A stretch of DNA of 62,365 nt, filler included, from Hausera hauseri (lineage: Eukaryota): assembly GCA_046269625.1 (NCBI GenBank). It is 12 parts of 12 records of this genome, joined end to end, with 100 filler letters (N's around TTAATTAATTAA, not from the genome) between each part and the next. Parts side by side here need not be neighbours in the genome. Positions count along the whole stretch, not along the records: positions 1 to 4,215 come from JBJURY010695993.1; 11 more parts are not named here. One strand, given 5' to 3'. The position numbers and the translations under genes were made by a program. Within the stretch, counting starts at the first letter, position 1, and every line of letters starts with the position of its first letter. The notes under the pieces are model-generated. The model was not told where the DNA came from. It searched no databases and saw only the letters and a list, made by a program, of their open reading frames with translations. Positions 1 through 32,277 of this stretch are shown here, one piece after another.

Positions 1-202
1 AATTGTTTTCCAAAGACATTGTTTAAAGAAGACAAACGTGAAAAGAAATTGTATTGATATTTATATGAAATTTATTCATACCGGTTTGTTTTCATTGTAA
101 GCAATAGACATTTACTTTTGTGAGTATTGTCTCATATCACAATGATACACATTACCTCCACATCACTGAAGGCCATGACACTGTTTTATTCCATTATTGA
201 AG

Positions 203-608
203 TCATTCGTAATAAATGTGTACAATTTCCATTATAGCACACTTACATCCTGGGCATTGGTTGGATACATTGGTAGAATACATTTGAAAAACAACGAGAT
301 GGCCGCACATTAAAAATACCGTATCCACTTTTCTTTGTTTACAGAGTACACACATAAACTGACAGTTTCGTACTTTGTATATTATTTTCTCTTCCAAGTT
401 CTTTAATCCACTTCGTACCTTTTCAACAGTATTAAAGTAATTTGTATCATACAATCGGTGAATGTACATTTGATTTAACACAATTATTAGATTTCCCATA
501 GAGCTGCAATCTGTTGCTGTCACCAATGTTATTGACGCTAAATCTTCTTTAAATCTAAAATCACGTGCTGCTCTCGAAACCAGCTCACTATCAAGTACTT
601 GCCACCAT
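203..608 (-). pseudogene. C-terminal fragment of an IAP/MDM2-type RING-finger protein
   Basis: CVLC-x11-CGH...CPGC at the extreme C-terminus, with two expected Cys read as F and Y. The upstream part is closely similar to the 3' end of ORF 22950-24329. Confidence 0.7.
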
Positions 609-779
609 TGTACCTAGTCTCAAATTGACAATCCATCAACATGTTGCAGTTGCTTCAGTTGATTCACTATTTTCATGACGATTATTATACTATAATCTTC
701 GCGTATTTATAGTTTTTTAAATTATTCAGCTGACAAATACCGCTAAATATGTCACGAACCTTATTTTCAGAACTAAAGA

Positions 780-1285
780 AAGAGAGAAATACATTTACTT
801 ATTTGCATGAAATAGTCAATGCAAAGCCGCAGACATTTTTTGTAAGCAAAATGCGGTCCATGATTACAATACGGACATCTAATAATGTCATGTACCATCG
901 CCAGCGAACTGTTTGATGTTCAATACGTCGTCATTCGCAACTCGTGCAATTATGAATGGAGTTGTGTAAACTTTTCTCCGTCAATTTGATATTTAATGTA
1001 AAATATTGTATTTACAATTTTAAAACGATCACAAATGTCTCGCATTATACATGATACGCAAAACTTTGAATTGCTTTCGTGCCAATAAAGTTCATGACGA
1101 TGTGGAAAGAGAAATCCATTTGTAAATTTCGCCTTTTCCGTCAGGTATTTCCACACAATACCGGGCTTGAATATGTACACAATCGGTTAGAAAATGTTAC
1201 CGACGTCCATAATGCATAATTCCTTTATTATGTACAGGGCATTATCATCTTGGAAAGCTTCAATATCTATAAATCCTGTCGTCAT
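780..1285 (-). pseudogene. DEDD/DnaQ-fold nuclease-like ORF of the type found in Polintons
   Basis: Manual translation from the ATG at 1285: MTTGFIDIEAFQDDNALYIIKELCI...*...FKPGIVWKYL...HRHELYW, then after a frameshift CPYCNHGPHFAYKKCL. It has an ExoI-like DIE motif. Confidence 0.5.
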
Positions 1286-1349
1286 TAGTTCTCGTGTACA
1301 AAATCATTTTGTTTATAACACAAACAAAACAACTAACTATTATTATTAT

Positions 1350-1813
1350 CACAATCATAAAACTGGTGGTTTTGCCCATATCACCAAAGCCAAATTCTTT
1401 GCGTTCATTTCATTTGCTTCATTGACGCAAAACAATCCCCACTGTTCAGGTGACATTACACTAAATTCCACCTCTTCACATCGAAGAAAAACGATTTGTG
1501 CCATTGCACTGCCTTTCGAAAAAGCATGTTTCCTCGGATATGTTTTCCAGCAACACCTTAATTTCGCCACGGAAGTCTGAATCAATGACACCTCCCACAA
1601 CCGTCAGTCCAAGCTTTATCAGTCCGCTTTTCGATAAAAGTTGGCCGTAGTAACCGTATGGGATCGTCAATCGAATACCGTCCGTTATACATTTGATTGT
1701 GCTGTCCGAAATTGTATTGACATAAGAAACACTTCGTAGCCTGCACTGTTTGCTGTAACACGTCTCGGTACAGTAGCACTTTCATCCGTTAAAATAATCT
1801 TTACATCATCCAT
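1350..1813 (-). pseudogene. dut: dUTPase (trimeric type), frameshifted
   Basis: Motifs I-V spread over several frames: SAGYEV, LSKSG, GVIDSDFRGEI, AMAQIVF, RKEFGFGDMG. Confidence 0.9.
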
Positions 1814-2732
1814 TATCGTCATCTAATACTAACAAATAAATTACACATTTATACTCGTTAATTGGGTTCATGAAACAGAAACAGTAAAACAACGACATCA
1901 ATATTTATTGATAATTAAAATGTGTTTCAGCTATACGCCAAATCGGGCTTTTGACAGTCTTTTTCCTTTTATCCTTGCAATTCATTGTTCAATCGATACT
2001 TTAAACCATCATCATCGGGTACATTAGACATTTTGCGACCGATAAAATCAAACAATTTCGTTTTTGTTGCTGGTAAAACGACAGATTACTGTTGCGCGGT
2101 CGTTTCATTCGACTTTAAATCCACGTTTAATTGATGTAAAGCATCAGAAAGTTTATCCAAATTTTCACCCGAAAGCCATTTTACACGGTAGCTGTACTTG
2201 GGTGCACATAGAGACACGGGATCATTCAATGAAATCAGTACGGGCGTTTTCAGAAAATGCATTTCATACTTGCGAAAAATTCGTTTCGGTTAAAATGTCT
2301 GTGTTTGGTGCAGCTGTTTTGATTTTCGTTTAGGTATTCCAATAATTGCCATTTGCCTTTTTAATGCGGTTTTGCTGCTGATGATGCAGATGATTATTTC
2401 TGAGCAAGTCCCTTTTTCATTTCCAGACAATCGACATTATAATCGCCCTGCAGATAGTAGCCATTAGAATTATCACACGGTTTTTCCAATTGTTGGACAG
2501 GTTCTGTTTTCGTTGTCAGAAATTTGACATTAGAATTGTCCTTTTTGTAGTCAGACAACCACGACCAAACTGTACTTTCATCATTCTCACAACCACCACC
2601 ATAATAGTCACTGAGTAGAATCGTTTTATCGTCGTCTTCCATGGCAGTAATATTTGAATGATCATGGGAATTGTATTTATAGTTTGTTGTCGTTGTGCAG
2701 AGTACATTATTTTGATTCACTAAGACATTTGT

Positions 2733-3173
2733 GTGGTTTTTAATTTTATTAATAATCGGTTCATAGTCCGCTGTCCGAATACCAAATACAAAAATTTTTC
2801 CACTGCTAAAAACATTGACACAAAGTGGGCAAGGCAATGTCAGTCTCAGTGCAAGAAACAGTTCGGGTTCGTATGTACATTTAGTGGCCATTGCTAATTT
2901 GTACAGACTGACTGATGGACAGTCTAACTGAGTCGTTACCGTTATTGATTGGATTTAATCAGTGATAATTCCGAATGGCATTAGTTTATTGTTACTGTCA
3001 GTTGTAATTGGTTTGCGACAACCCATAATACGACACTTTCCCGATTGAAATACGATGCATGTAAAATCCGGTGGACACTTGAGGACATACTGCCTCGACT
3101 TCCATTGACTAAAATGTAGTGTGTTAACGTCACACTCGGTAACATGTCCGCGATAGTTGATATTAGCTAACAT
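2733..3173 (-). pseudogene. Divergent, intronless TATA-box-binding-protein-like gene (core domain only)
   Basis: ORFs 2955-3233 and 2394-2891 share one frame, separated by a single TAA. Two TBP repeats are visible: CIVFQSGKCRIMG, then IQSITVTTQL...YEPELFLAL...VNVFSSGKIFVFG (canonical: ALIFSSGKMVCTG, YEPELFPGL, LLIFVSGKVVLTG). Confidence 0.75.
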
Positions 3174-3264
3174 TATGGAAACATTTTTTATCCTATATCT
3201 ATTTATATATGCGTGTAACATGATTATAAACAAATCATGTGATGAGGAAAGGTACTATTATTAG

Positions 3265-3920
3265 ATGAAGCTGCAGAATGATGCTATTTTCCAGATTGTA
3301 GGCCCCAGTGGAATTGGTAAAACACACTTTGTGTGTAAACTAATGCAGAACTACCGTGACATGTTTCGTCCACCGCTGTAAAATCACATATACTGGCATC
3401 AGGGTGTTAGTAATGATGTGAGTCCGTTTTGACACATCGGAAATTTTGTAAATTAAAATCGATAACGGTAATTGATGGGTTTGATAAGAACCAGTCTGAG
3501 AGATTACACAACCGTGACGTTATTGTCATCGACGATTTATTTCAGGAAGCTGAGAAACAATCTCACTTCAACAACCTGTTCACGAAGATTGCATGACACC
3601 GTGGTGTGACGCTTATTTTCATTACCCAAAACATGTTCCATCAGGGCGGACAGCATCGAACAAGGAATCTAAATGTACACTATTTGGTGTTGTTTCAAAA
3701 TCCCTGTGATCAGACTATTGTTGATTATGTTGCACGACAAGCATTTCTTCACAACCCAGCCTACTTGATAGATACATATAATGATGCTACGAACAAACCG
3801 CATGAATATCTGCATATTGACTTTACACAACAATGTCCCGATGACATGCGTGTACGATCAGATATTCTCAATCAGAAAGGTGTACATGCCTATAAACAAA
3901 TTCGAAATTTGACGATATGA
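3265..3920 (+). pseudogene. Polinton/A32-FtsK-like DNA packaging ATPase
   Basis: Walker A GPSGIGKT, Walker B VIVIDDL, then HRGVTLIFITQN, LNVHYLVLFQNP.D and YLHIDF. Contains internal stops and a frameshift. Confidence 0.85.
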
Positions 3921-4134
3921 TTGTGACAAAATGAAGAATTTCCGAAAAACAATTGTTAAACCTTAACCTACCAAGCGGGTGTCTGGCAAGAAACACGTAT
4001 CAAAACGAGCCCCTACAGTCAAGCGATTAACCAGTTCTGTGCTTCGAACAACACTAGCAGAAACTAGACGCAAATTACCGTAACAGTGGAAACGGTTATA
4101 AACAACTACGTCTCAGCATTAATACGTCCAAAAT

Positions 4135-4215
4135 ATGCGATTCAAATGTAGTCAGCCGTACTTTATTGCTTTGCTCAAGGCACCTACGAGACATAAGCGA
4201 AACATGCTACGATCA
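4135..4215 (+). CDS. 5' fragment of a small conserved Polinton-type ORF downstream of the ATPase, cut by the contig end
   Basis: MRFKCSQPYFIALLKAPTRHKRNMLRS resembles the start of small ORFs that follow Polinton ATPases. The match is short and weak. Confidence 0.25.
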
Positions 4216-4374: not shown

Positions 4375-7300
4375 TTACAATAATGCCACATGTCCATGAG
4401 GTAGTATGTGGATTCCGTAATCAAAAATGTACCTCTTGTCACCCAACCAATCGAGACTTTTCTTTCGCAACGCAACTGTGGCAATCTGATGTTCGCGGGA
4501 CTGGATCCTTTTTATCTCGCTGACGATGTGACTTTGCTCCCGCAACACTCTCTTAAAATCTCCAAAGCCAATGTCTTTAGCTAATGTGGCCCTTTGAACT
4601 CCCTTGGCTTGCTTCTTTACCTGACCACTTACATCTATGGCGTACATTTTTGATCTCAACGTCACGAAACGGGTGATGATCTTTCCATTCACCTCGTCTT
4701 TAAACTTTCCGAGGACATTCTTGTGGGCAATTAAATAATTTGGATGATCCTTTGGATAGTCTGAGGTATCCATATACTGCGCCAATTTTGCATATTTTTC
4801 AAAGACATAATCTGTGCGGATCAGATATATGAAACTATCCGTGTCCATATACATTAGCTGGAGCTCCTGGAATGCGGGGACCATGATGTTGTAATGAAAG
4901 TCATACATCAATGTCTTGGATAGATCTAATATGGACATTCCCACATATATAGGCTTGTTGAACTCAAGTAATATCTTGAGCATATGGATGCTCACCAGAT
5001 TCTCCGTGTAGATTGTGCTGCTGTGGAATGTGGGCTTAGCGATGAGTTCTTTGCCTTCTTTCAGTCACATACCAGCTTAATGTTTATCCGTTTCCGGATG
5101 TTCTCCATAGTTTTGCCAAAGACCGAGTTCTTATACAACTTGTATTGGTCCTTTTCAAACTCGTTCTTGGCATTGGCCCTCAACTGAGTATTGAGGTCTA
5201 TGTATGGATTCAGCCATTTGGACTGGCTGAACTGCAGGGCCCGATGAATCCTGATGACTCGGAGTCCATTTTGGATGGACTGTTGGCGATTTATGTAGTG
5301 GGCTACATACCTCTCCCTGTTTTCGAGATCACAGATCAGCTTATTATGCTTATCATTTGGCGGCCTCTTGCTCTCCGGGAGAAAATGCAGCTGCTCATGC
5401 CTTGTATGGATGCTATGTGGGTATTCCATGTCCACCTCCAGTATGTAGCCCGTATCTCCATTGGTATTCATACCTTCAATATCCAGGACTTGCGTCTGCT
5501 CCACGCATTGAAAGTTATCATAGGGCAATGGGTTGCTCATTGCCCATCCATATAGATTGTTGGCATCCAGGTATAATATATATATGAGGATTACTTTGAT
5601 GGATCATAATCTGCCATGTATTTGTTGTTGGCCTCACTGTACCTGTGAACGGCCGAGCAGATTCCGCCTCTAATGCCTCTCTCGATCATAAGGATCATAT
5701 TATAATCCTTAATGATCTGCAGCCCAATACCAGTATATCTCAGCATAGCTGCCCAACTCATTCCGGGAGCTGTAAAGAAATGGGCTGGATCTAACTTGTG
5801 ACTCTTAAGGGTCACATTCCGGAAGCTTTCGAAGACATCAGTAAGCAATAGAACATCTGTGAGGAGATAGATATTACTGTATTCCATATTGCCCTGCACT
5901 AGAAGGTCTGTCATACTATTTGGGCGTGCTTATATTCAGCATCGCTAATATGACTGCATGACAACTGACTATAGAAGTTTTCCTTGGACGGTAATGCATC
6001 TTCATCCAGTGCTTTCCATGACGTTATATAGTCATAGGGGAACACTCCTTTCCGCTTCACAAGGTCAAATGTATCCGGGAAGAACCTCGTCGTCTCCTTG
6101 AGCTCATCAGCTGGAAGGTTCTGCACGGGACTCTCCAGTGACGAGCTCATGAAGTGGAAGCTATCAATGAAGCGAAGGCTGATGCGGCCCATATGTACGT
6201 AAAGGGGATGTACTTCTCCTCACTATTTGGAATCATATCAACGTTCCCCTCAATATTACCCAATTCTCGAACAATGAAGTGGGAATCGTATCCATTAAGA
6301 TTGTAGAATACCACGGGAACATATGTACATGTCTTGCAGCGTAAGTTGCAATTGTTGCACGCTGCGCCTCGGTATATGCCTGTAAAATGGCAGTGATCCC
6401 TGACTTTGTGATTGGCCCATGTAAATGGCTTTCTGCATAAGTAGCATTTTGATGCTTTGCGCCATTTACATTTTTCTTGCTGCGACATCACCATGTAGTC
6501 TTTATGTAGCTGCAAGATGTCTTCAATTTTGTGTGTATACTGTTTCAGACGCTGCATAAAATGTGTTGCTTCATTTACACCCCTGTATAGATAGGGTTTT
6601 TTGTCCAGACCTTTGGCATACATGCTGTATAATCATAACTCATGGTACTGGTATGCTGTAGTACTGCTTTGCTGTGGATTGGGGTTGCAGCTGTGAACTG
6701 GACTGAGGATGGCCTCAAAGTCACAATATATGACAATCGGCACCTTCTTCTCTCGAACTCCTTAAATTCCAGGTAATCCTTTTTGAGAAATTCTGGTCGG
6801 ATGCAATAGTTTGTATTGCAGTAGGTATTGTGCTCCACCAACTTTTCTGCGGCTGTCCCTACTAAAATGGGTAAAGCATCTTTTGCATATTTCCAGCCTT
6901 GATTTATGCTTGGATATTTGGAATTTTAGGAGGCGTTCAAAATTCTTGATCCAGATGAAATGCCTCGTTTCTCCATCATTTAGCAGAAGATCCCTATGAT
7001 CCTCCAATTCCTCCTTACACGTACGTAAGGGATAAAATTTGTTCTCCTCCAATCCAAAGATGTTGATGAAAATGTTGTTCACGCTTTCAAATTTCACGAC
7101 CTCATCTAGGCTCGGTGGGAATGAAATACAGCTGAGGTCACATTTGTGCTGCACTTTGTTATATATGCAAACTCTGGAAGCATTATGTTTATCCTGAACT
7201 AGTTTCAACAAAATAGAGTACATGAAGCACATGCTGTCCTCATTGTGGATATTGATGCATGCCTTTTTCTTAACTATCCACTCAAGAAGCGGTATGTAGG

Positions 7301-8107
7301 AGCTGCCTCTTATGGGAGAATACTTGTACACATGCACATGTAACTCCTTTATTGTTGCTAAAGTCCAACCGCTCTTCTTGTCCTGGCTTTTTTGGCTTCG
7401 CAGATGAGCCTTGCATAGTCCTCTGTAATGAAATTTTTAATGTTAAAGGATTTTAATAGTGGCTTTTTCTTTGACTTGAAGGCTCTATTAGACAGCTCTC
7501 CTTTGACATTGGTGAAGGTGACTTCCAATTTGTAGTTCACCTTAAGAGTCTTCGGCTCCAACAAGTTGTTCTGGAGAATTCCTGCTGCCTCCTCCCTTGA
7601 ATATTTCAGGAAATCATCAAGCGATGTCTGCCGCACTGCTGCTATGAAGTATCGTTGTACTTTGCTCTTCAGTGCAGTTGCATCAACTGGCAGCTGTCTT
7701 TGGCTTTTTGATGGAGCATCTGCTGCTACTTCTGATATGCGTTTTGGTCCTGCATCAGGCCTTGCTGTTAAAGCAGACCTTGCTGCTAAAGCAGGCTGTA
7801 CAACTGTCTGTGCTGCCGAAGCAGGCTGTGCTGCCAAAGCAGGCTCTTTCTCATTAAATATGACCTTCTTTGGCTTTAAATTGAAGTCTGTCAAATGGGC
7901 AATATGATCTTTGTAAAACTGCATGTATTCTCCATCACATACAGCCTCATATCCAGGGCAAATATAATAGAGGACTCTATTGAATTTGTATCCATAATAG
8001 CTCCTCATGGCATTGTGGCAATTCTGAGGGTTATGTATTGCACATATGCAATACACATATAAACTGAATCCTATATTTTCCTTTGGCACGAAAGTCGTTA
8101 TTGGCAT
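4375..8107 (-). pseudogene. Protein-primed DNA polymerase B (family A copy): putative terminal protein region, vOTU-like domain, EndoVII-like insert, exonuclease and polymerase
   Basis: GSSYIPL...NEDSMCFMYSIL and RHFIWIKNFERLL; CYLC...RDHCHFTGIYRGAACNNCNL; YNLNGYDSHF; RKGVFPYDY; RGIRGG; YKLYKNSVFGKT; YMDTDS; KGVQ. Many frameshifts. Confidence 0.93.
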
Positions 8108-9017: not shown

Positions 9018-10690
9018 GGCAACAGATGCAAGCGATTATGGAATAGGAGCAGTATTATTACAGAAGGGTGAAGATGGAAAAGAACACCCTGTGGCCTGTG
9101 CTTCAAGAAAACTTAATAAACATCAAAAGAAATACTCTGTAATAGAAAAAGAGTTATTAGCAGTGATATTTGCCTTAGAAGTATTTTCACCGTACATTAA
9201 TGAAAATAAACCACTTATGATTTATACAGACCATAGACCACTTTAATAGCTAAAACAGCATGAAAATCCAAATAGTAGACTCCTACGATGGGCTCTAAAG
9301 TTACAACCATATACATTGAATTTTCAGTATAAATCTGGCACGCGAAATGCTAATGCCGATTACCTATCGAGACTACCAGATAAAATAGAAACGAAAGCAG
9401 TAGTCGCAGGCACATAGAGTATAAACGGATCAACTGAGAAAATTAAGATGAATCAAGATGAAGATATGGAAATAAGAGCCATTAGGAAATATACAAAAGA
9501 TAAAACTATACCAGTTGACAGAGAATTAACCCGTCACCTGGCGCGATTCAGCGAAGTGTATGAAGGGAAGAAAGGATTTCTATATTTTATTAGTCAAAAC
9601 GGACCTGAATTAGTAATTCCTAAGAAAAATAGAGCAGTTTTATTAACCCAATAACACGATGGATTGCTTGGAGGACACCAATCAGCCAATAAGACATTAA
9701 GCAACTTAAAACGGAAATACTTCTGGCCAACGATAATGAAAGACGTACAAGAATGGTGTGAGAGCTGCAAGTTGTGTGCTACCCCAAAAAACACAGGATC
9801 AAAATTTAAAGCACCGTTAAAGGTATGGGATAACTCTCAAGCACCATTTGAGTTTACCGCGATTGATGTAACGGGACCATTACCGTTAACACGAAATGGA
9901 AACAAATTTATCTTAGTATTTATCGATTATTTCACCAGATGGGTGGTTGCTTTACCAATGCCCGATATGAAGGCAAATACAATTGCTGAAAGATTTGTGG
10001 AAAACAGTGTTTAACTATGGAGCTCCAAGAATTCTCCTGACTGATCAGGCATCAAATTTAACTGGATCAGTAATGCAGTCCATATATGATATCTTGAAAA
10101 TATTAAAGTTGCGATCAACGCCCGGACATCAGGAGAATAATGGAATGGTTGAAAGGTATATTGGAGATCTGAAAAAAAAGTTACAAACGGTAGTAAATAC
10201 TAGGCAAGATGATTGGGACGAATACATCAATGCATGTGTCTTCGTCAATCGCATATCAGTCCATGAGGCTACTAAAGAAACACCCTTCTATTTAATGTAT
10301 TTGCAGAATGCAAGATTACCAATCGACCTAGATTTTAATGTGAAACCCATTTCACATTTAATGGAAATAGAAGACTGTAAACAGTTAATGCAAGAACGAC
10401 TTCAGTTAGCCTGCAAAATGATTGGCGATAATCAAAAAGATTACAAATTAAAGTATAATAAGTACTATGACCAAAAGACTAAACAGCCTAAAATCAAGAT
10501 AGGCGACCAAGTAATGTTGTATTCTCCAGTAATTAAAAAGGGTAAAACGTCTAAGTTAGACAGACCATATAAAGGACCATATGAAGTAGAAAAAGTAAAT
10601 CTACCGAATATTTGTTTGAAGGAAAATAATACTTCCGTAAAAGTACACGTTAATAGATGTAAGCCCGCGGCCAAGGAGAGCGAATTAAGA
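9018..10690 (+). pseudogene. Ty3/Gypsy pol 3' part: RNase H and integrase
   Basis: TDASDYGIGAVL...EKELLAV...TDHRPL; HHCC finger (H..GGH...CESCKLC); DDE residues (AIDVTG, LTDQAS, NGMVER); GPY/F motif YKGPYEV. The RH-IN order is Gypsy-type. Confidence 0.95.
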
Positions 10691-10759
10691 AAGGGTGAAA
10701 AAGAGTTGGTATGTAGCATTTGTGAGAAGGTAATCGAAACGGACGCAACAAACAAACTA

Positions 10760-12725
10760 CGATTAAAAAGGGTATTGGTACTAATCATCATCTTATTATC
10801 TCCCTTAGTGATAGGATAGATGACGGACCAAGAAGTCGAAAAAGCAAAGCTACGACATGCCACGGCCATAAACGAGGATCTATGGTTGAAAAGCTTAAAG
10901 TATCATATAACGTACTCCACGAAAGGCCAGAAATGCATTACCTGGTATATTACAAGAAGAATGCCTGGCGAGTATATTATAGGGATACGAATAACCCCAG
11001 TCTACGGTTATAAAAGAAACTCTAATGAAGGACATAATGATTGTATTCTTCGTTCATCGATAAATGAAACGCAATGTCCAATAGATACTTCAGGGCCACA
11101 TGGAGTACACCTAACACTCATAAAGAAAAAAGAGGATTATTATTAGTTTATATACCAAATTTCACAGGTATATACGTGTTCCCCACAGACATGAAATGAA
11201 CGAAACACTACTCGATGAAATAATACTCGCACAGCTAAGGATAAGATCAATGGGATTTAAAAGTGGACGAAGCTGTCTCGAAGTAAGGAGTATGATAGAG
11301 TTAGAATATATCCGATGGATAACGATATCCATAAAAGAAATAGGAGGTGAACAAAGATTATTGAAATGCGAATTAACAGATGAACAACAACAAGTTTGCT
11401 GTAACGTAACAAGAGGCAGGATATATGAGGTAAAATACACTCTGTCACGGAAGGAACACGGAAAGCTTAAAAATAAAAGGCATAGAACAGGACCGACAAT
11501 GTTTATACGATATAAGAATCAAAAAGAGTATGATGATATACGAGAAGGGATCACGGCAACACCTGTGCAACTCTCAGCTAGTAATAAAGAGATGACTGTC
11601 CTAATTAAGCCTTACGCTTCTTATTACCGCCAAAAACGTTCCATCTGGAATAACGTAACCATCATAGCAGCTCCCACGGCACTAATCATCTCAGTTAAAC
11701 CAGATCTTGACTTCGTAAAAATTAAATTCACTTGTAAAAAACAAGATACTATAATAGCAAAAGGAATCATAACTCCGGATGATCTGATAGTGCCGTGTGC
11801 AGCTCTAGAATCCGATACGAAATATACGATTATGCTACAGTTATTAGATGCTAACGATAAAATAACCTCTACCAAAGTAATGTCCGCAATCACCAAAGGC
11901 AGCAAAGTGGAATCACAATACAGATTAAAGACAATTAAAAATAAGACAACTAAAAAGCCACAACGAGCAGGATATAAACATTCTCGTTTAGAAATAATTA
12001 TAATAAGTTCAATAACCCCTATAGTAATACTAATAGTAGCAGTAATATTAGTTAAGCTGATACAACGACAACGACACAAGAAAAGACAGAGCTGGGTACG
12101 AATCAACTTACGTGAGCTAACGAATTCGTTAGCCACCACTAGTCCCAGCTGACGGTGGAGTTTAGGGATTGCTATTAATGCAACCCTTTTAACGAAGATA
12201 ACCACAGGTCAACAGGTTACCTATAGAGATAAATCAAGTTATAAAACTACAACGATTACCATGGCATGTCTGATAACCGTTGTGTTGCGTGTAGATATTC
12301 ATATTAGCTCGCAATTGACATTTCTATTTACAGTGTCGTCCTCAACCTTTCATCAAGTCCAATCAATTACCAGGTCTAAACACTGGTATAGTAATGCAAA
12401 AAACCTCATAATCAACACCAATCCAGCTAATCAATATTATACGATACAAAACGATCATACAACCAGTTTGAATTACCCACTGACACAAATCCCAAACAGT
12501 CTAAAAGGATATAGTATGGCTGACAGGTCTCTAGCTCTAATGCAGATAACAAAAGCCACATCACTATATCTAATAGACATAATGATTCTTCACGATCGAT
12601 ATCACTCTATAAACATTTATTGTATAGTCGGTCAATTCCATATCAAAACAACAGCTAGAAAAACATCGATAAAAGGTGATCTTATTAATATGAACACTAT
12701 TCTTTTATCCAACAAAATCTATTAA
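10760..12725 (+). pseudogene. Retroelement-borne type I membrane protein (signal peptide, FN3-like ectodomain, TM, cytoplasmic extension) in frame with integrase
   Basis: Hydrophobic VLVLIIILLSPLVIG ends the integrase ORF; TAG at 10817-10819 is followed by an in-frame continuation. Several NxT sequons, an RQKR site and an FN3-like LESDTKYTIML motif. TM LEIIIISSITPIVILIVAVILVKLI is followed by a basic stretch. ORF 12261-12725 is in frame after one TGA. Confidence 0.6.
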
Positions 12726-12814
12726 AAATACGATCCCTTACCAATCGTCTTATATTAGCAATCGAAGTGATAAAGAAAGAAAAATTTTAGCCAAGTGTAC
12801 CTAACGGAAAATGT

Positions 12815-13555
12815 TTGGATCTCCCAGAGCCTGATTACGTAAAATATAGAACAATTCCTTATAGACGTATTCAGAATGTCACAGATAACGATCTGGTCAT
12901 AGCTGCCGTTAATTTGGCCTATGACCAGTGGAATCAACTGCAGCCTATCGAAATATCGATTATAGACTTATATGGAAATACATTATTCTACAGCATCGTA
13001 TCTCCTCGCCAACGTATAAATAACTTCGACAGTCACATAACCGGTTTGGTCGAAACAAATATTGTCAATCAAATGGATCCCCCGGACGTCTACCGCAAAG
13101 TGACAGAAATATTAACCGATAAGATTGTTATCGGGGCCGATGTGGTCGAGATGATCGTGAATTATTTCAAGTGTCCCATACGCCGAATAGCCGGAGTTCG
13201 TGATGTCTTACATCACGAAGAGGTTATTCGGAAATAATAATTGTCAAATAACACTTTCAAAGAATTAGCCCGCAAATTTTATGATTGAAAGGGCTTTCCA
13301 TTACATAGCACCGCTCTGGTGCAATGTTACAAAACAATTTATCGCCAACTTAAATGGAACGACGAACTAATCTTAACTAACACGGCCTCCGATAAGGTGC
13401 GAACAGCACCCATAACATCCACATGTGGCAGAAACAGAAAGGTACAGGTCGATGTAACCGTGGTCATCGACGAAGTATATGAACCGGAATCTATTCGATA
13501 CAAATCTCGATCAACCGGTAAATTCGTCCACGTCCCATTGAGTTTAGATCAGTAA
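12815..13555 (+). pseudogene. REX4/ISG20-like DEDDh exonuclease fold, catalytic residues apparently substituted
   Basis: EISIIDLYGNTLFYSIVSP...NFDSHITGL...KIVIG...FKELARKF...HS follow the REX4/ISG20 pattern, but the ExoI DxE position reads NLA. ORFs 12815-13237 and 13319-13555 share one frame. Confidence 0.6.
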
Positions 13556-13588
13556 ATTCGGGGCAATTTCTTCAGTCCCCCATGAAGC

Positions 13589-14106
13589 TGTTTGACTGAC
13601 AGCTGTGACTCCAATTGAAAAAAATTAATAATCTCCTTAACAATCCAACAGATATTTATCGACTCATAAAACAACCCAACGAACATTTATCGATTATAAA
13701 ACAGCTGATAACCGACAGTATTAATTAGCAGAAGTGTGATTAAAATATGGTGTATATTAATTTTTATTACGATAACAGTTGTTTCATGTGTAATTATTGG
13801 TGATCAGAAAAACTATATATAGATTGATGATTAGAGAAATTTTTGTGAATTTTTGAATTTTTGAATTCATTTTATGATTTTCGACGTTTGAATGACATCA
13901 CGTAAGCCTATGTTATATTTCTTTGTTGTGTGTGATAAATATTTCAATATATAATTATTTTGTTTAGATTATTGTATACTTGTCAATAAATAAGTAAATC
14001 TAAGTAATTGGTCTTTTCTTCCCGTCCAGGTTAACCCTACCTGACGGGAGCCTGTCTAATAAATAGGATAATAAACAATAGTAATTAATTGCTAAGTAAA
14101 AGACTT
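13589..14106 (+). repeat. Putative 3' LTR of the Gypsy element, truncated by the contig end
   Basis: Non-coding AT-rich tract starting TGT shortly after the last ORF, with AATAAA and a hairpin. No canonical PPT and no partner LTR in the window. Confidence 0.3.
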
Positions 14107-17302: not shown

Positions 17303-19514
17303 ATTTACCTGACTGGACGTTCTTTCATACCGACATCTGCATCCTTGAAGCAGTCTCTGGCGACTGTGAATGTACAAAATACTAATGACGAATACTGCTT
17401 CAGTTACAGCATTCTGGCTATATTGAAATATGATCAAGTGTCCAAACATCCTGCAAATTGTCCAAAGCAGTACAATAAGTATTTCTCAGAATTGCACTAC
17501 TACGAATGATGGATGCCGATGAAACTCAAAACCATTCCGGCTTTTGAACAGCGTAATCCGACAATAGCAATCAACGTGTTCCAATACAACACAATCGTAA
17601 AAATACCAGTAAACGAAGAGATATACAAAACCCACACGTAGATATAATTTAGCGCAGTCGGAACCCGAATGGACGCTCGGTAAAGTTGTTGCTGTTGGAC
17701 TAAGCAGATAAATTTCACTACGTGGCAGCAACCAATTTGGACAGACTGCTGAACATGGATCACCAACAATTCATCAAAAAGCGTATAAATTGTAAATGGT
17801 GCTTTACATGTCTGCATGGTTTCAGGTCAAAACGACATGGGAAAAACATGTGACACTGTGCAGACAAAATTCATCAGGGAAAACAATGTACGTCATGCCA
17901 GACAAAAAGGAACTGAGATTCATTGACTGGTCGCAAACAGACAGTCCGGCATATGTGGTATATGCCGATATCGAGGCACGCTTACCGCGGCACAACGTAT
18001 GCGACCAAAAGCACATTCCAATCATCGTCGGTATATTGGTTGTTTTAATAAAAGCCGCCGGACAACTGTAATATTACGTTTTTCATGGCTGGAACTGTAT
18101 ACACGATTTCGTGCAACAGTTGGAAACGATAGTGGAAACGGAAATCACACTGTGGTACAGTAACAATAACACTAAGCCCTTGATATGGACAGACAAATAT
18201 GAATCGCTGCTTTTCGCTGCCACCGATGAATATTACCTCTGCCAAAAAATATTGGCTTTTGATACACAGGAACGGCTCGTACCGGACCATGATAATTTCA
18301 CCGGTCGATATCTGGGAGCCGCATGCAACGCATGCGATTTAACAAGGCGATCTTGGTATGCGTGGCGGCATGACATTTGTCAACAAGCATCACGTAACCA
18401 GTGATGATACCACATCACTGTTGTATATTAACATTAATAACCTTTACGGCTGGGCGCTTTCACAACCCTCGCCGTACGGTTCATTCGAATGTATAGTCGA
18501 TAAAGAGGACCTGGACACAATACTGGAAAATCTGTTGAGAGCAGATACGACAACAGCAGAAAACAGCTCAATGGGATACCTGATGGAGGTCGATCTCGTG
18601 GCACCCGATGAGCTGCATGAAGTTTTAGACGATTTACAGGTCGCACCATTTAACTAATGTCTGCCGGGCTCAAAGGTAAAGAAGTTGCTTATGACGCATG
18701 AACTCAAGCAAAATTACATAGTTTATTAGCGTCTGTTGCAATTTTATATTCAGTTGGGTGTATGCGTCACACGAATACATCGCGCAATCCGATTTGCTCA
18801 GGTTCCCATATGCAAGGCGTACATATATGGAAATTTGGAAAACCAGCCGCAGCTTGTAGAAAGTTCGAAAAGGACTATTACAAGCTGAAAAACAATTCTC
18901 TCTATGAAAAGCAATGGAGAATCTGAAAAAGCGGCTCAATGTATGCCTACGCAACAGCGAAAAGCGGCTGGTTACGTATATTAGCAAGGCACAGTTTCGG
19001 CGGTCAATGCACATTGCCGATGGATTGGTTGCGTTGCTGTTAAACAGAGAAGAAGTCGTTCTGGAGCGATTAAGTTACTTCGGACAAGTGGTATTGGACC
19101 TAAGCAAGTTGCGGATGTATGAGCTACGGTATCATGACTTGGTACGTTACCGGCAAATGTTTGACGACAATGACATTTGTATATTTGCCGGTGACATAGA
19201 CAGTTTTTTCCTGCGGCTGAAAAAAGTCAATCGCGAACAGCTACTTCAGCAAATGTAGTCAAATAGATTACTGGACACGTCCAACTACCCACCGGATCGT
19301 CTATTGTACAGTAGCACAATCACCAATAAAATCTTCTGCTTAAAGGTGAAAGTGAATGCAGGGTTCAGTATTGGGAATGGATATTATTACGCCCAAAGTG
19401 CTACAGTCTTCGGACGGACAGTGGACCGAAAATTCTGGCAAAAGGAGTCCAGCTGAGACAGACGGAAATCGGCCACGGTAATTATCGCCGTATATATGAA
19501 GCAGCAGCAGAAGG
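17303..19514 (+). pseudogene. Protein-primed DNA polymerase B (family B copy), 5'-truncated with an internal deletion
   Basis: GRSFIP, DEYCFSYSIL, HYVAATNLDRLL, VYADIE, PDHDNFTGRYLGAACNAC, then directly MRGG, YININNLYG, GDIDS. Confidence 0.92.
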
Positions 19515-22949: not shown

Positions 22950-24460
22950 TTGAATAGAATTGAAATTATGAAATTGGTAATTAACGTTTACAAAGTCCTG
23001 TTACGGACAAAATCGGAAACGTTAATTTTTATGGAAATGGGTAATAAATTTAACGAAAAAGAGATGCCAATAGATGCGGGCAAATCCGAGGGCCATGCCT
23101 CTGGCTCCTCACCAAAAAATATGAAGTATTCGGGCCAGGAGAAGCTCAAGAAGTATAGACGATTCAAAATGTCCCAATCGTCTTATTTACAGAAACAAAT
23201 ACAAAATTCTGAAATGAATTGTTTGGAATTAAAAACATTAGAAATGGTATCTGTGTCTATATCTCAGCATAATTCTGAAGCTAAAACACATTTTAATGAT
23301 GAGAAAATATGTGGAAAAATTCCAAAACTCATTTGTCGAGATGCGTTTGCTTTATTTGGAGCTAAATTAAAAAATGTTCAAAGTTCAAATTTAATACAAA
23401 AATGGAAATCCGCTGATGTTTTTACGTTTGAAGTTAGGGTCAGAAATGTATCGAATACGAACGACTCTGATTTGTTACACAAGATCGAGTTCCATCAAAG
23501 GTCAAAGATCTGGCTACAAATTCCAGATGAATTGTCGAAGGAAATTGATAACAAAATCGTGCTACTGTATATAGAGAAAGATGAAACGTGCACCAAAAAA
23601 CACTTGATCATTCCAGGAACGTGGAAGGTATTTGTGTGTCGTATAAATAATATTGTTATTGGTTACTATTGTTCTTCTCGTTTGATGTGTCCTGCCAGTG
23701 GTTATGCTGTGTGTTCGCGTGAATGTATGTATGCTAAAATCCGTATGCATGCTCAAAGCCACAAAATTAATGGTGGAGAAAATCCCCCGGAGAGCAGCAC
23801 TCCGAAAACAATAGCTAGGAATGTTGAAAATTTTAAATTAGATGTTTTTTTATATAGATATATATTTGATAGGGGATTTCGGGGATTGGGAGAGAATTAT
23901 GAATTACACCTTATAAGGTTCGAATCGGATTTAAGGATATTCGGATCTGAAATAAACACATGTAATTGTAAGACAAATACATGCGTGTGTAGTATTCTAA
24001 TGAAAAAGAGAGACGATCTCGTAGAGAATTTTAAAATTAAAGTGTATTACTCGATTCGAAATCTTTCAATGAAGAATAAAAATGTGTGTATATCAAAAGT
24101 GAGATTAAATGGGCCCAGGAGGAAGATAATAAAGTTTACGCCGGGAAATGAGTTGGGGGTCAGATTAACAATTTGTTTAAAAAGATGGTGGCATGTACTT
24201 GATAGTGAACTAGTTGCGAGAGCAGCTGGTGATTTTGGATTTAAAGAAGATTTGGCGTCAATAGCATTGATGACAGCAACAGATTGTAGCTCTGTACAAA
24301 ATCTAATTATTGTGTTAAATCAAATGTAGATTCACCGATTGTACAATACAAATTACTTTAATACTGTTGAAAAGGTACGTAGTGAATTAACGAACTTGAA
24401 AGAGAAAATAATGGACAAAGTTAGAGACTGTCAGTTTATGTGTGTACTATGTAATTATGA
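22950..24460 (+). pseudogene. Large intronless ORF of a RING-terminated protein family (paralog of 203-608)
   Basis: 459-aa open frame. The TAG at 24327-24329 falls where the paralog has Tyr; translation continues IHRLYNTNYFNTVEKV...CQFMCVLC and then diverges. Confidence 0.6.
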
Positions 24461-25379: not shown

Positions 25380-27133
25380 ACACCAATACCCATACGCTTA
25401 TCATCTTTCGCTTATCATCAGTACATGACAAAGCGATTTTTGTGTTTGTTATAGTATACAGCTGGTGCTCCATCAATCGCATGGTCGTTTGACACACAGC
25501 CATTGATTGTCCTCTTCCTTCTCCTTGTCGTCCACCGTCTTTTTCTTTTTCTTTTTCTGCTGCTGCTTCATAGATACTGCGATAATCATCGTGGCTTATT
25601 TCCGTCTGGCACAGCTGAACGCCTTTTGCGCGCATTTTCGCACCACAGTCCGTCAGGAGACTGTAGCACTTTGGGCCCAGGCATATCTATTCTCGGTACT
25701 GAACACGGCCTTCGCTTTCATCCTTGAAGCAGCCGAATTTGTTCGTGATGGTGTTGTTATACAGCGGATGATTCTGCAGGTAATTGGACGTGTTCAGTTG
25801 TTTACCTGCTATCATTTGCTGGAGCAGTTGGTCGCGATTGACGTATTTCAGCTCAAGAAAAATGTTGTTTGCGTCACCGAAAACGATACTGATATCACAG
25901 CCGTCAAACATTTACCGGTAACGTGCCAAGTCGCGATACTGGAGCTCGTACATTCGCAACTTGCTCAAGTCAAATACCACTTGTCCGATATAGCTTGGTC
26001 GGTCCAGTACGATTTATTCCCTGTTTAACAGCACGGCGATCAATCCATCGGCAATGTGCATTGAACGCCTGAACTGAGCCTTGCTGCTATACGTCACTAG
26101 CCGCTTTTTGTTGTTACATAGGCGCATATTGAGTCGCTTTTTGAGGTTCTCTACTGTTTTGACGTAGAGAGAATTTTTTTTCAACTTGTAGTAGTCCTTT
26201 TCGAACTTTGTACAAGCCGTGGCTGGTTTTTCTGATTTTCCGTCAATGCATGCATTGAATATCGGCGCCATATTGAATTTGATTGCCCAATGTAGCTGTG
26301 TGACGCATACACCGAGCTGCATGTAGAACTGTAGCATACGCCAGTGCATCACGTAATTTAGCTTCGGTTCATACGTCATGAGGAGTTTCTTCACCTTTGA
26401 GCCGCCGAGCGGACATTGGCTGATTGGTGCGGCAGGTAATTGGTCCAAAGCGTCATGCAACTCATCCGGTACCACGAGATCAACTTCCATCAGGTAACCG
26501 AATGAGCTGTTTTCTTCCGTGTCTACTCTAGGTAAATTTTCGAATATTGCCTTCAGGTCTTGCTTGTACGTTAACCATTCAAATGAACCATAGGTCAAGG
26601 GTTGTGAAAGCGTCCAGCCATACAGGATATTAATGTCAATGCACAGTAGTGATGTTGTGTTATCATCACTGGCAGCATCAGTAGCACTAACGTGGTGCTT
26701 GTTGAGAAATGTCATGCCGCCACGAATACCAACATCAAACAGTCTGTACATTTCTGGGTCTTAAAACAACTCAATGTCCCAGTCCAATGATATCAGAGTC
26801 AACGCCAAACCCATTCACGGTATGGAGTAAAAGTTGAGCGGCTCCAGACTATCTTCCGCCAACGCTTTAGTCCGAAATGTCTGAAACACGTCGGCCAGCA
26901 AGTACACGTCCAGTTTCAGATTCTGGAGCATGTAATTTAATAGGCTTCTGCAGCCGAGCTCTGACCAAGATTCCTGTGCTCTGCGATATTCATATTCTGT
27001 TATACTGGGCCACTGCGGCGGCAATTCCTCTGTTGTCTGAAGCCGCTCGTACGATATAGCAATGTCATACGGGAATATGCCGTTGCTACGTTCAATATGC
27101 ATCGGAAACTGAGTTGGTGTTAACGGTACATCC
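25380..27133 (-). pseudogene. Protein-primed DNA polymerase B (family B copy), 3' half
   Basis: GIFPYD, LKLDVYLLADVF, GIRGG, IDINILYG, YYKLKKNSLYVKT, GCFKDE, RAKGV, KIALSCTDDKR. Confidence 0.93.
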
Positions 27134-27233: not shown

Positions 27234-28400
27234 GGGTTCTCTCGGTTTTTCAGTCATTGCAATGGTCGATTATCCGTGTATATCACTAAGGGTTTGTTTT
27301 CGCTAATATATGGTGAGAATACTTCTACAGCAAAAATTACTGCCAATGATTCTTTTTCTATTACTGAGTATTTCGTTTGGTGTTTGTTTAATTTCCTTGA
27401 CGCGTATGCCACCGGATGTTCTTTACCATCATTATCTTTTTGTGATAGTACTGCTCCCATCCCATAATCACTCGCATCAGTTGGGTACATGAGGATAGGA
27501 GCGTTTAACAGTTTTTCTTTTAAATTATCAAAAGCCTTTTGACAGTCATTGGTCCATACTACTTTTTCTAAATCCCCCCGTAACAATTCATACAGTGGCT
27601 TGGCTATTTTGCTAAAGTTCTTTATAAATCTACGATAGTAGTTTACTAATCCAAGGAATCGACGTAACTCTTTTACTGTGGTTGGCTTTGGGAAATCTTT
27701 TATCTTTCCTAATAGTCTATCCTGGGACTTTACACCATTTCTATCAAATCGGTGTCCGAGGAAATCCACTTCAGTTTGAGCGAACATACATTTCTTTGGG
27801 TTTATTATTAAGCCAGTGATTTCACATCGATCGAAGAGATTCTGTAAATCTTTCAAGTGTTGCTGAAAATCCGACGATGCTATTATTACATCATCAATGT
27901 ATACCACAGCGTGTGGTGCGTCTAAAAGTAGTAATTCTGTTCCTCGCTGAAATGTTGGTGGTCCATTTTTTAATCCGAACGGCATTCTATTAAATTCCCA
28001 TAATCCTTCCCCTATTGAGAACGCTGTTTTAGGTTTATCTTCCTCTTTTAGCCCCACTTGCCAATATCCCTTTTGTAGGTCAATAGTGGTAAATATTGTC
28101 GCACCATGTAATTTATCTAATATTTCGTCGATCCTTGGTAATGGATAGGTGTCGGTTTCTGTTACTTCATTCAATGCCCTATAGTCTATACAAAATCTCA
28201 TCGTCCCGTCTTTCTTTTTAACCATTACTACTAGTGTAGTCCACGGCCAGCAGCTTGGTCGTATTATTTTATTCTCTCTCATTTCTTTTATAATTTTTCG
28301 AGCCTCTTCCTTTTTGTCGTATGCCAGCTTGTAAAGCCGTTTTTAATGGGCTTATCTTGTCTCTCTTTTAACTTGATAACATGTTGAATAATGTTCATTG
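27234..28400 (-). pseudogene. Ty3/Gypsy reverse transcriptase and RNase H
   Basis: RFCIDYRALN, IDLQKGYWQ, RMPFGLKN, YIDD, FLGH, FLGLVNYYRRFI, TDASDYG, EKE, TDNRPL. Confidence 0.97.
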
Positions 28401-28562
28401 TTCCTAAATCATAATAATTTTGGGCGAATCGACCACTATTATTTTCTAATAGTTGAAGCAACATTTCTTTTTCCTCTTCTGTCAGTGCCGTGGAATTTTA
28501 TAGTTTCTCTTTCCAATTGATCGTGGTGGTTTTCTTTTCCTTATCTTTGTTGGTATTCTATT

Positions 28563-29270
28563 TTAATTTCCTCGACCCCATCTTTTCGATTTATCTACAT
28601 CTGAGATAATCGACTTAGTCTCCTCCTTGGGTATTTCTTCAATTGCCATTATCGATCCGAGTCTGCTATTCCGTTTTAGTTGTTTTTCCTTTGTTCCAGT
28701 GTTACAGATTCTCAAATGGATTTTTTCATCTCTTATTTTATTCGCATGTGGTGTTACTAAAATGTCATATTTATCCATTACGTATGGAGATAGCTCAAAA
28801 TATTCTGACCTTATTGGTAGATTCCTTTCTATTCTACCGTGCACTACCATTTCTGAACGCGGTGGAATAGTAATATCTTCTATCAATGAAACGGCTTCCT
28901 CGTATCGCTTCTCGTTAAAACTTCTAAGTTGGCCCGTCTTAATATCAATATATACGTTATCTAATTGGTGTAATACGTCACATCCCAGTAGTATTTCGTT
29001 CGTTAGATTCTCAGCTACTCTTATAGTGTGGTTTATAATTTGGCCACAAATTTTAATCTTCGCGTCTAGAACCATTTTTATCTCCTCCTCTATTCCAAAT
29101 GCTCCTACATTAATCAGGGTTTCTTCAAGCTTTCGTAATTTACTTTTCAATTTCTTGGGTAACTGACTCCTTCACATTATTGTGGTTATGGATCCGGTGT
29201 CTATTAAGTCAAATAGTGGATACCCATTTACTTCTATTTCTATTTCTGGTCTCGTATACGATCGGGCTTC
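28563..29270 (-). pseudogene. Retropepsin (aspartic protease) followed by a dUTPase-like spacer domain
   Basis: LIDTGS catalytic motif and ILLGCD, then ITIPPRSEMVV...LRICN...RLG. One in-frame TGA at 29172-29174. Confidence 0.88.
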
Positions 29271-29654
29271 GTTCTTAGAACTTACCTTACATGTCGCTTC
29301 GCGATTATATGGTATAGGATTTTCGTTGTAATCCTGTTTTATTCTTAAAATTTGGTACGTGGGGTACATTCCCCCATGTCTTACGTACTGGGGGGCTGAT
29401 GGGTTCATCGACAATTGGTCACTGTAAACTTGTCCATAGTACTCTTCCGCAGGATTTAGTTGTGGTAAATCGGTAACTAATTTCCTTTGATATTTTTGCT
29501 TGTGGGGTTTCAACGGCAATCTTTTAAGTCCATCAATATACCTATTGCCTTTAAATCTAGTGTCTAAGTTGTCCTCACAACTTCTTCCATTCAGGGTGCT
29601 GTAAGGTGAATTATTGTCAGCCTCGTGGTTTCTTTCTTTTGATATTTTCCTTTT

Positions 29655-31490
29655 CTATTTCGCGTCATGATTTGGTAAAAAGCAACTAGCTACTGCTGGT
29701 ATCACCGCTATGAGGATTTTACAAGAACATACCATAGCTGCATGTATACCATACGCTTTACCCAGCGCAGTGAATATCGTTCATAAGGCACTGATAATAA
29801 AATATATAGCCAAGAATCCTGATGCTGCCTGACCGAAGTATAAAAACTTCCCCCACATCTTTTCCATCACGTTTTTTGTAACCTTCTTCAGATAATCCTT
29901 TCCCATTAAATTCGCCCAATGTGGGAAACATTCTCCATCCCACATTACTTTTCTTGTTAGTTTCGTTAATATCCGTTGTCTCTGTTGAGGGAACAATAAC
30001 ATCCTTCGATAATCTTCTACATTTTTTTGCGTGTACATGCCTCCTTAGGATATGCCAGTTAATGGTTCGAATTTCTGATTTCTTTGTAAGTTAATTAAAC
30101 TTAAAGTTTCCGGTGTTGCTACTTCTTCTCTTTTTGGCATTCTGAACCACTTGTCATTTAGTTTAAACATTGGTGGCATATTAAAAGTACAATTATCCAG
30201 TTGCATGGGTTTCGCCCTAGCATCTAATAATATGCGGGTTACCGGTATCACATACCGAGGTTCCATATTATAATTCACTGGCAACTCTGAGGTGCATTCT
30301 TCAGTTTCTCTGATCGCTACCTCTACCTTTTTACATTCAATCGTTACTAATACCTCACCCATCACTCGCCCAATCACTCCTTCTCCAAATGGCATAACCG
30401 GGGCCACCATATCTGGATTCGTTATCACCAACGCCATCTTGTTACGTATTATTTCGTAAATCAATTTACATTCGTTCAGTATTATTTCCCTATATAAGTT
30501 TCGTATTTCCCTTCAAACGTAATTAATCAAATAGTCTATTTTATTATCGAAGTATTGTGTTAATTTGATATCTTTCTTGTCAATTTTTGTTTTCGCCTCC
30601 ATCACCTCTCTCTATAATTGGTCTTGAACATTTGTTCATTACATCTATTGGTCATTCCCATAATTCTTAATCGCATCATTTCTTTGGGGTTTTGTGAGTA
30701 TACTACCGTTGCTACTTCCGTCATTTTTACTTCTTTAACTCCTTCTCTGTAGGTTGCTGTTTCTTTTTCAGCCGTTTTTCCAATTGTTTTGTTAAATTTT
30801 CCTTCTTTTAATAACGTCAAATGACATCTATTTGAAGATGTTTCCCAGGTCATCTTAAATTTTCCCTTATCACATTCACCATTCTCGTATTCACATTCAC
30901 CCATTATTGTCATGAATTTTGTTTGTGAATCGAATAATCCTTCGTATTCTTTTAATTGGACCTGATAATCTTCAATTGCTACCGTTCTTGAAGCAATGGT
31001 GCCTCCAACATCATAATCTACTTTTTTACAGGTGCCTTCCATCGTTTTATCTATTCTTCCTGCTCGAAAAATCCGAGTATACTTTATCTTACCTCGTACG
31101 GCTGGTATCTGAGCATTCTGTATTGTTATGACCCCGATTTTAAAAGCGTCTTGACATTCTGTCCGTGATATTATTATTGGCTCAAAAGGAGTTGTTGGTT
31201 CGATAATTGCGGAGTTTCCTGAGTAGTATACACAGTTGAATAAAAAAATGACTTCTTTACATAACACTCCCCAATTTTGACCTTTATAAATTCTGATTCC
31301 TGATAGACCCAATACCTGTGACCACTAGTTGTTGTTAATTGTTCCGGGTCCGCTTCAGGGCATTTCTCTAGATCAATTAAGAAATACTTTTGTTCTTCTT
31401 TTGGCTTTGAACAATCATAAGCCATTATTCCCATAGCTTTTGGCATGCAAATAGATGCTATTAGTAATATTAGTAATATTTCCATAAAGG
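29655..31490 (-). pseudogene. Env-like class III fusion glycoprotein (chuvirus G / herpes gB-like) embedded in the Gypsy element
   Basis: Signal peptide ILLILLIASICMPKAMG, then IMAYDC...LEKCP; ISRTECQ; GEVLVTIECKKVEVAIRETEECTSELPV...PVTRIL; GGMYT...LLFP; C-terminal TM GFLAIYFIISAL. These motifs match chuvirus-like glycoproteins. Confidence 0.82.
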
Positions 31491-32277
31491 ACATTCCACC
31501 CAAACCTTGTTTACTCATGCTTGGTTGTGTTGTGATTGGTCTTTCCGGTATTTCCCCTTCTGATCTTAATCTGCCATTCATCAGACTAGGTATTTATCCA
31601 CCTATACACGGTACCCAATTTCCTAGAGTATCACGCAAAATTTTAACAGTCACCTTTATATTCCGTTTGATTTCGTCCAAGTTCTGTGTTTAATAATTAA
31701 TAATGATCACTTTATATATCATGTAGGCAACGGCCGTAATAACCTTTTCCCGTGTGATCCCTGTGGAAAACATCTCCAATATATTTTGCTCATGGAGTTC
31801 GTTAATTCGTTCTTCATTAATATTTTCATAAAATTGTCTGCTAATTCTTAACATATTATTTCGTAGCGTCTGCAACAATTCGTCAGGGATAGCAATTTGC
31901 ATATCAAACGATGCAAACGACGTATGTAGTTTTGCTAGCAGCGTTCGCAACAAGGGATCTATATTTACTGCTTCTGGTATCGTATCCGTTTCTGTTAATA
32001 ATAATCGTCTTACGATTTCTTCGTTCCGATCTTTTTTATTGCAAGTGTCACTTATTTTTGTTCCCTTTGACCTTTCTTTCATTCAAGCTTCGATCTGCAC
32101 CATGACATCTTGAGTGCCACCCAATAGCTGTTCTTCCGCTATTCGGGGTTCTACCTCCCTCACTATATTAGTTATTGTTTCTTCCGCCCTTGTTTCTGGA
32201 TGTATTTCAGTTATAGTGATTGGATTATAGTTCTCGCTTCGACACCCAATTCTTAATAGTTGATTATAGCTGTATAA
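31491..32277 (-). pseudogene. Conserved unknown domain X preceding the glycoprotein
   Basis: EEIVRRLLLTE...RTLLAKL...IKVTVKIL...WVPCIGG*IPSL, in the same frame as the G signal peptide. Homologous to 39267-39993. Confidence 0.6.

Follow-up and report, generated by a model that had tools for sequence, protein, structure and literature searches.

A decayed TATA-binding protein gene from a capsid-encoding Polinton lineage and a proposed early-to-late promoter switch

In Hausera hauseri, a gene for a TATA-binding protein (TBP) lies beside the packaging ATPase of a Polinton. This locus raises the question of how capsid genes are controlled in Polintons, which have no RNA polymerase, and bears on the long-open question of whether these elements qualify as true viruses that follow a life cycle of programmed steps. 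The window, by which we mean the whole stretch of 62,365 nucleotides analysed, consists of 12 separate pieces with N spacers, and the TBP/ATPase finding lies on the piece at positions 1-4215. This 4.2-kb piece is an internal fragment of a Polinton with the following features (window positions):

203..613, minus strand: RING-finger ORF, with an 89% identical copy at 24185-24454 on another piece of the window
785..1291, minus strand: conserved Polinton gene C4, with three stops (C4 is in 19/80 loci, the best 80 of 81)
1311..1317, minus strand: TATAAAC box, 32 nt 5′ of gene C4
1476..1820, minus strand: dUTPase, broken (Pfam E 8.9e-11)
1948..2331, minus strand: remnant of conserved gene C2 (in 22/80 TBP loci, the best 80 of 81, mostly adjoining TBP)
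2394..2645, minus strand: acidic ORF, in frame 3′ of the TBP gene, recognized as an ORF only
2724..3173, minus strand: compact Polinton-type TBP gene, decayed (Pfam, PDB and family-profile matches, tree, codon analysis)
3202..3209, minus strand: canonical TATA box TATATAAA, predicted host-type early promoter, 36 nt 5′ of the TBP ATG
3225..3231, plus strand: TATAAAC box, 40 nt 5′ of the ATPase ATG
3265..3920, plus strand: A32/IVa2-like packaging ATPase, broken (homology to Polinton ATPases)
3891..3897, plus strand: TATAAAC box within the ATPase 3′ end, 40 nt 5′ of a basic, broken ORF at 3931
4097..4103, plus strand: TATAAAC box, 38 nt 5′ of the small conserved gene C3
4135..4215, plus strand: start of gene C3, ended by the piece edge (weak match, E 2e-4; C3 comes after the ATPase in related loci)

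In regard to the identity of the gene, the Pfam family PF00352 matches 2724-3173 on the minus strand with E 9.5e-12 (45 bits vs. a curated cut-off of 22.9), and the TBP family profile matches over 3176-2724 with E 1.7e-52. The gene holds a single in-frame stop at 2955-2957, and its translation, searched with X at that place, matched the solved TBPs of the PDB at E 2.5e-7; together with the model of an intact relative, which forms a TBP saddle, this bears out the expectation that the stop-repaired translation would resemble TBP. The compact intronless core of the original prediction stands as far as TBP homology and the lack of an intron and of an N-terminal extension are concerned, but it is not an ordinary two-repeat core, as its N-lobe is about 20 residues short. 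The gap between the TBP ATG at 3173 (minus strand) and the ATPase ATG at 3265 (plus strand) is 91 bp, matching the divergent start about 90 bp away that was reported originally. Non-family residues occupy three positions conserved elsewhere in the family, and the terminal branch of this copy measures 0.25, vs. 0.035 and 0.066 in the two intact relatives closest to it. Downstream, the TBP reading frame continues stop-free to 2394; the acidic ORF found there had no match in Pfam or PHROG. The ATPase shares 61-68% identity with Polinton ATPases, spread over two frames; stops interrupt it at 3379-3381 and at 3594-3596, and its frame changes near 3417-3420. Being damaged in TBP, ATPase, dUTPase and C4, this copy of the element is likely dead. 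The lineage from which the decayed TBP gene comes is one of capsid-encoding Polintons.

The structure-atlas and PHROG searches gave no explanation for C2 and the other small genes, while a relative of C4 may, as a lead only, have a predicted 3′-5′ exonuclease-like fold. Other pieces of the window carry four more decayed Polinton-type pPolB genes (4375-7433, 17303-19503, 25408-27129 and 33316-36319), the third of them on the same piece as the second RING-finger ORF. By eye, LTR-retrotransposon fragments with RT, protease, integrase-like and envelope-like ORFs were recognized at 9018-14106, 27234-32277 and 37892-42100, and, at 42532-45200, what looks like a host AP-1/AP-2 beta-adaptin gene whose introns are very short, which suggests that the assembly is eukaryotic and probably from an animal.

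Of 96 candidates, 89 are homologues of the window's TBP, the nearest being 73-74% identical, and their lengths within the family range from 144 to 210 aa. The rarity implied for a Polinton TBP did not hold, the gene being far more widespread in the lineage, with 61 clusters (50% identity) reaching E<=1e-30. In the metagenome scan, at least one core Polinton gene accompanies TBP at 37 of the best 80 of 81 loci, one of which (L083) is a cellular TBP, and at 18/21 loci of at least 4 kb. Linked genes recognized by Pfam are ATPase (Pox_A32/IVa2), rve integrase, pPolB, adenain and PLA2X, and the gene cluster C11 is a double jelly-roll capsid protein by fold (E 1e-14). The pPolB, rve integrase, adenain and capsid genes are present across L011, L027, L033, L062 and L067 combined, and are absent from the window's own 4.2-kb piece. 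TBP and ATPase occur together at 27 loci, in tandem with TBP before ATPase at 24, divergently at 2 and in another order at 1. The linkage first noticed here is therefore conserved, while its head-to-head order is not, and a conserved head-to-head arrangement was ruled out.

Several further observations concern the distribution of the family. A contig within a Bacteroidota MAG (L088, JAZKHM010000092.1) has the order PLA2X-TBP-ATPase-C3-ZnF-integrase and is likely a mis-binned eukaryotic Polinton. Accessory cargo at related loci (L033:222-719, L035:1918-3330, L049:1710-2171, L067:7052-7912) includes a ubiquitin-conjugating enzyme, LRR proteins, RING fingers and KilA-N proteins. In one public run (X1), 26,082 contigs match the piece 1-4215, mostly at 85-99% identity and in all 30 bins, from which it follows that the organism has very many and diverse copies of the family, although depth is not equal to copy number. 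Viral contigs gave no match to the window's TBP or to the capsid alignment; the TBP profile found only three distant NCLDV-type TBPs there, and the ATPase alignment one distant locus.

The tree of 67 rows, a selection of those available (LG+G4, 172 columns, a reference set without verified TRF2), places the window's TBP inside a 39-row clade with support of 100/100, separate from cellular and NCLDV TBPs and not grouped as a host retrocopy, in agreement with the viral origin suggested at the outset. The clade sits on a long stem and groups at 88/90 with two unlabelled two-lobe proteins. The dN/dS ratio, with a median of 0.165 and a maximum of 0.59 over 38 non-independent locus pairs passing identity and saturation filters, indicates that the family TBPs are under purifying selection. 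Linkage, clade and constraint together uphold the proposal of a Polinton that carried its own TBP.

The model of an intact relative (P0003, pLDDT 96.2) shows the full sheet and no helix before residue 84, and compares with TBP at Z 13.9 and rmsd 2.5, with 146/149 residues aligned and TMq about 0.7; as modelled, the two-lobed saddle fold is retained in this relative. Yeast TBP has phenylalanines 99, 116, 190 and 207, which we take to be its four intercalating residues. In the 93 rows of clade A, the subfamily of the window, which are not dereplicated and were in part assigned from their origin and not from the tree, F116, F190 and F207 are each retained in 93/93, and F99 has no counterpart in any of them nor in the window copy. 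Both stirrup glutamates are acidic in 93/93 (E186 is E in 91 and D in 2, E188 is E in 92 and D in 1). The N-lobe helix segment has a median of 19 aa vs. 32, and positions K138 and R141 are gaps in 87 and 90 of the 93 rows; this subfamily is, according to the alignment and the model of P0003, without both N-lobe helices, including the basic H2. The examination of intercalating phenylalanines and partner surfaces proposed with the original prediction thus gave a divided answer, as three phenylalanines and the TFIIB-contacting glutamates are kept while F99 and the TFIIA-binding helix of the N-lobe are gone. Residues were mapped to a plant TBP, and yeast-equivalent numbers were checked against PMC1636458 and PMC13566119.

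The base-contacting face shows fixed changes in the same 93 rows, namely V71N (91), V122R (93), T124M (93), N159S (93), I194R (93), V203C (93) and L205N (93), and L114 is replaced by I or V in 74. Of these, 194, 203 and 205 are the positions through which TBPm3 has its changed specificity according to the available part of PMC1636458, which also suggests that Pro191 of cellular TBP demands T at position 1. As set out in the accessible portion of PMC13566119, here a secondary source, C/G at TATA position 7 has to form a Hoogsteen pair if it is not to run into Leu72 of cellular TBP, which equals yeast L114, and cellular TBP is still able to bind the position-7 C variant. This residue adjoins the places altered in the Polinton family. 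The available sections of PMC7221094 describe the N-lobe basic patch as a common site for TFIIA, Mot1, TAF1 and Brf1/2, and the C-lobe stirrup glutamates as contacts of TFIIB. The kept glutamates, along with no viral TFIIB seen, would point to host TFIIB, an argument from two residues. In the sister subfamily, clade B (L062, L063, L066, L067, L070, L073 and L076), the N-lobe helices are kept, and the altered DNA face and a YATAAAC promoter motif, often CATAAAC, are in common with clade A. As clade B has the helices yet uses YATAAAC, helix loss is unnecessary for the specificity, and retargeting likely preceded miniaturisation.

The motif was counted at dereplicated starts, within 70 nt 5′ of the ATG, against a background of 2.8%. 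It precedes ATPase at 20/21 starts, C3 at 15/17, PLA2X at 8/9, C8 at 9/13, capsid at 6/9, LRR at 5/5 and C4 at 5/8, and TBP genes at 0/54, although the relatedness of the loci makes these counts, and the Fisher p (2e-10), look more independent than they are. It is scarce 5′ of C2 (1/16), C9 (0/7) and C14 (1/8), and a poor fit for integrase (5/15), adenain (1/6), ZnF (0/11) and pPolB (1/3). Canonical TATA, in turn, is enriched 5′ of TBP (22/54 vs. a shuffled mean of 8.3 and a maximum of 17 in 1000). Judged from sequence, there are two promoter classes, canonical TATA before TBP and YATAAAC[A/G] before ATPase and the virion genes. Position 1 is C in 28 and T in 56 of 84 sites, and 82 of them have A or G at position 8. 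The sites peak 31-45 nt 5′ of the ATG, with 74 sites vs. 6-17 in neighbouring bins, and for ATPase and the virion genes the usual distance is about 35-40 nt.

On the window's piece, 4/4 TATAAAC sites lie 32-40 nt 5′ of a same-strand gene start. Over the whole stretch TATAAAC is not enriched (18 vs. 13.5 +/- 4.1), so only the position of the sites matters. Where the motif falls within the ATPase coding sequence, its DNA is kept in 22/22 cases, about half of which would be predicted by codon usage, and two change Y to H; the near-invariant C-terminal Y/H-K-Q/R of the ATPase reflects a DNA-level constraint, due to the box of the next gene lying inside the coding sequence. Three TBP-less Polinton loci (L085-L087) have no YATAAAC 5′ of the ATPase, and L087 has ordinary TATATA boxes there, but these controls are few, distantly related and partial (4.2, 9.0 and 15.7 of 30.7 kb, within which the absence of TBP was judged), so the absence of the motif is confounded with lineage. 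Contigs of run X1 over the intergenic stretch list three variable places, none in TATAAAC, too few to discriminate. GTAA...TTTAG sequences 5′ of C2 and C18 ORFs (e.g. L011:1788, L012:477) resemble short introns of the spliceosomal type; if they are such, transcription by Pol II in the nucleus would be implied.

As YATAAAC stands before packaging and capsid genes and not before TBP, the TBP is a likely switch for the virion genes. We consider it probable that the intact TBP is the element's late-gene transcription factor, acting with host TFIIB and Pol II, where "late" is assigned from gene identity alone. According to this model, host TBP together with Pol II would transcribe the TBP gene early, by way of the ordinary TATA box in front of it. 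The viral TBP would then bind YATAAAC, whose C at position 7 would be awkward for cellular TBP, and its kept EPE stirrup would bring in host TFIIB and Pol II. Host recruitment is proposed because the elements showed no TFIIB or RNA polymerase of their own; there was no TFIIB Pfam match in the 43 + 15 proteins scanned, from loci that are partial and hold several unannotated ORFs. Without the basic N-lobe helix, the protein could escape control by Mot1/BTAF1, TAF1 and TFIIA/Brf1, and packaging and capsid genes would be expressed only once TBP builds up. With somewhat less assurance, we favour the wider proposal that, in a widespread lineage of Polintons, an autonomous cascade from early to late genes depends on one orthogonal TBP of about 150 aa, which recognizes YATAAAC, makes use of TFIIB and Pol II from the host and no longer has the surface by which the host regulates TBP. 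The suggestion that the TBP served to redirect or block host initiation survives mainly in its first half, redirection being favoured by the matching promoter box on the element's virion genes and blocking less so.

Blocking would nevertheless be the function if the TBP were a decoy or dominant-negative protein, sequestering host TFIIB or occupying host TATA, with YATAAAC a weak TATA for host TBP. The retention of the TFIIB stirrup while the regulatory helix is gone would suit such a protein, and variants with C at position 7 can still be bound by host TBP according to the part of PMC13566119 at hand. We regard it as unlikely, since the invariant new base-face residues argue for a selected, altered DNA recognition, the strict C7 with free C/T at position 1 is hard to explain by host TBP, and host shut-off would presumably be costly for a germline-integrated element. 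A similarly doubtful possibility is that YATAAAC is read by another factor, either the late machinery of a helper large DNA virus, as for mavirus, or an element protein, and that the TBP binds elsewhere or serves replication or integration. Promoter motifs of virophages and PLVs appear in the portions of the literature available, several element genes are unannotated and the TBP-less controls are weak, all of which leaves room for such a reader. Against it, the motif is TATA-like, stands at Pol II TATA spacing, co-occurs with a TBP altered at TATA-contact positions and is missing from the three TBP-less loci.

Two further readings dispense with a functional pairing of TBP and motif. YATAAAC could be a poly(A)-signal variant (TATAAA/CATAAA) of the upstream gene, unrelated to TBP, and it does show a secondary peak near stop codons (40 sites at -15..0), which is explained by genes tightly packed in tandem. 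The ATG-relative peak of 74 sites is sharper, the motif is found at 10/13 late starts without an upstream same-strand gene vs. only 11/81 isolated 3′ ends, where AATAAA occurs 22 times, and AATAAAC is present in 0 of 78 late upstream regions. The TATAAAC at 3225..3231 in particular is not the poly(A) signal of a neighbour, as it lies between divergent starts and no plus-strand gene ends upstream. This very improbable reading was dropped, given that the motif tracks starts and not isolated 3′ ends. The chance that the gene is a host TBP/TRF retrocopy lying accidentally beside a Polinton fragment is practically nil: an intronless and broken gene would fit it, but the 73-74% identity is to intact family members, the gene is nested in the Polinton clade and its neighbours C2, C4, ATPase and C3 recur at other loci, so that tree position and recurrent Polinton linkage rule it out.

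If the proposed cascade is true, no smaller viral system for switching promoters would be known, and the TBP and its promoter would form a natural pair of altered specificity. There would then also be evidence that these elements have a regulated cycle of virion production that needs no helper virus. Consisting of one small protein and a 7-bp site, the pair predicts early and late genes from sequence alone. It also shows how far a TBP can be pared, down to the loss of F99 and the N-lobe helices, and retargeted.

Compared with cellular TBP (PF00352; yeast 1ytb, human 1cdw, Arabidopsis 1qn3), the Polinton TBP has the saddle fold over its whole length (Z 13.5-13.9) and F116/F190/F207, N69 and the YEPELF stirrup in common, but identity is only 20-24%. 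F99 and the N-terminal extension are missing, the window's subfamily is without the N-lobe helices, and seven base-facing residues are replaced and fixed. The Polinton TBP is thus a PF00352 member, but not a canonical TBP.

Nucleocytoviricota and mirusviruses mostly have their own RNA polymerase. Their TBP-like proteins have a degenerate N-lobe regulatory surface, for which evasion of Mot1 was proposed (Ravarani 2020, PMC7221094, in the sections available), and to that extent they resemble the Polinton TBP. The same sections state that these large viruses mostly encode a matching TFIIB and that the stirrup glutamate is about 40% conserved, while in the Polinton TBP the glutamates are near-invariant and neither TFIIB nor RNA polymerase was seen. 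NCLDV TBPs also fall outside the Polinton clade, at 8-20% identity.

With Polintons, Mavericks and adintoviruses the lineage has pPolB, rve integrase, ATPase, adenain, the double jelly-roll capsid and PLA2X in common. For a MELD/polinton-like virus, the legend of Fig. 5 in Starrett 2021 (PMC8502044) mentions a gene labelled TBP; in the available text it is a legend abbreviation only, with no family description, structure or promoter, and it may not be the same family. The text supplement of that paper has no TBP or TATA, term searches of Bellas 2026, Stephens 2024, Jeong 2023 and two PLV papers gave no mention of TBP, and we found no account of the TBP family, its anatomy or the motif in literature on Polinton TBPs and promoters, although figures and Repbase may annotate them.

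A functional comparison can be drawn with the vTBP of beta- and gamma-herpesviruses (KSHV ORF24, EBV BcRF1, HCMV UL87), which serves late promoters with TATT(W)AA according to the available parts of PMC6541308 and PMC7498053. From these, the likeness lies in a viral TBP mimic, a modified TATA on structural genes and the use of host Pol II, the Polinton side being a matter of prediction. The herpesvirus protein, as described there, is large, has several domains and belongs to a vPIC of six proteins, while the Polinton TBP stands alone as a core of about 150 aa in which the TFIIB-contact glutamates are kept, and YATAAAC differs from the herpesvirus motif. BcRF1 and UL87 gave only weak structural matches (E 5e-3 to 1.5e-2), and no vPIC-type genes were present among the gene clusters scanned in related loci. 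By analogy, the Polinton TBP likely works like herpesvirus vTBP but outside that complex and, if the proposed switch is true, would form an independent counterpart of late transcription in herpesviruses.
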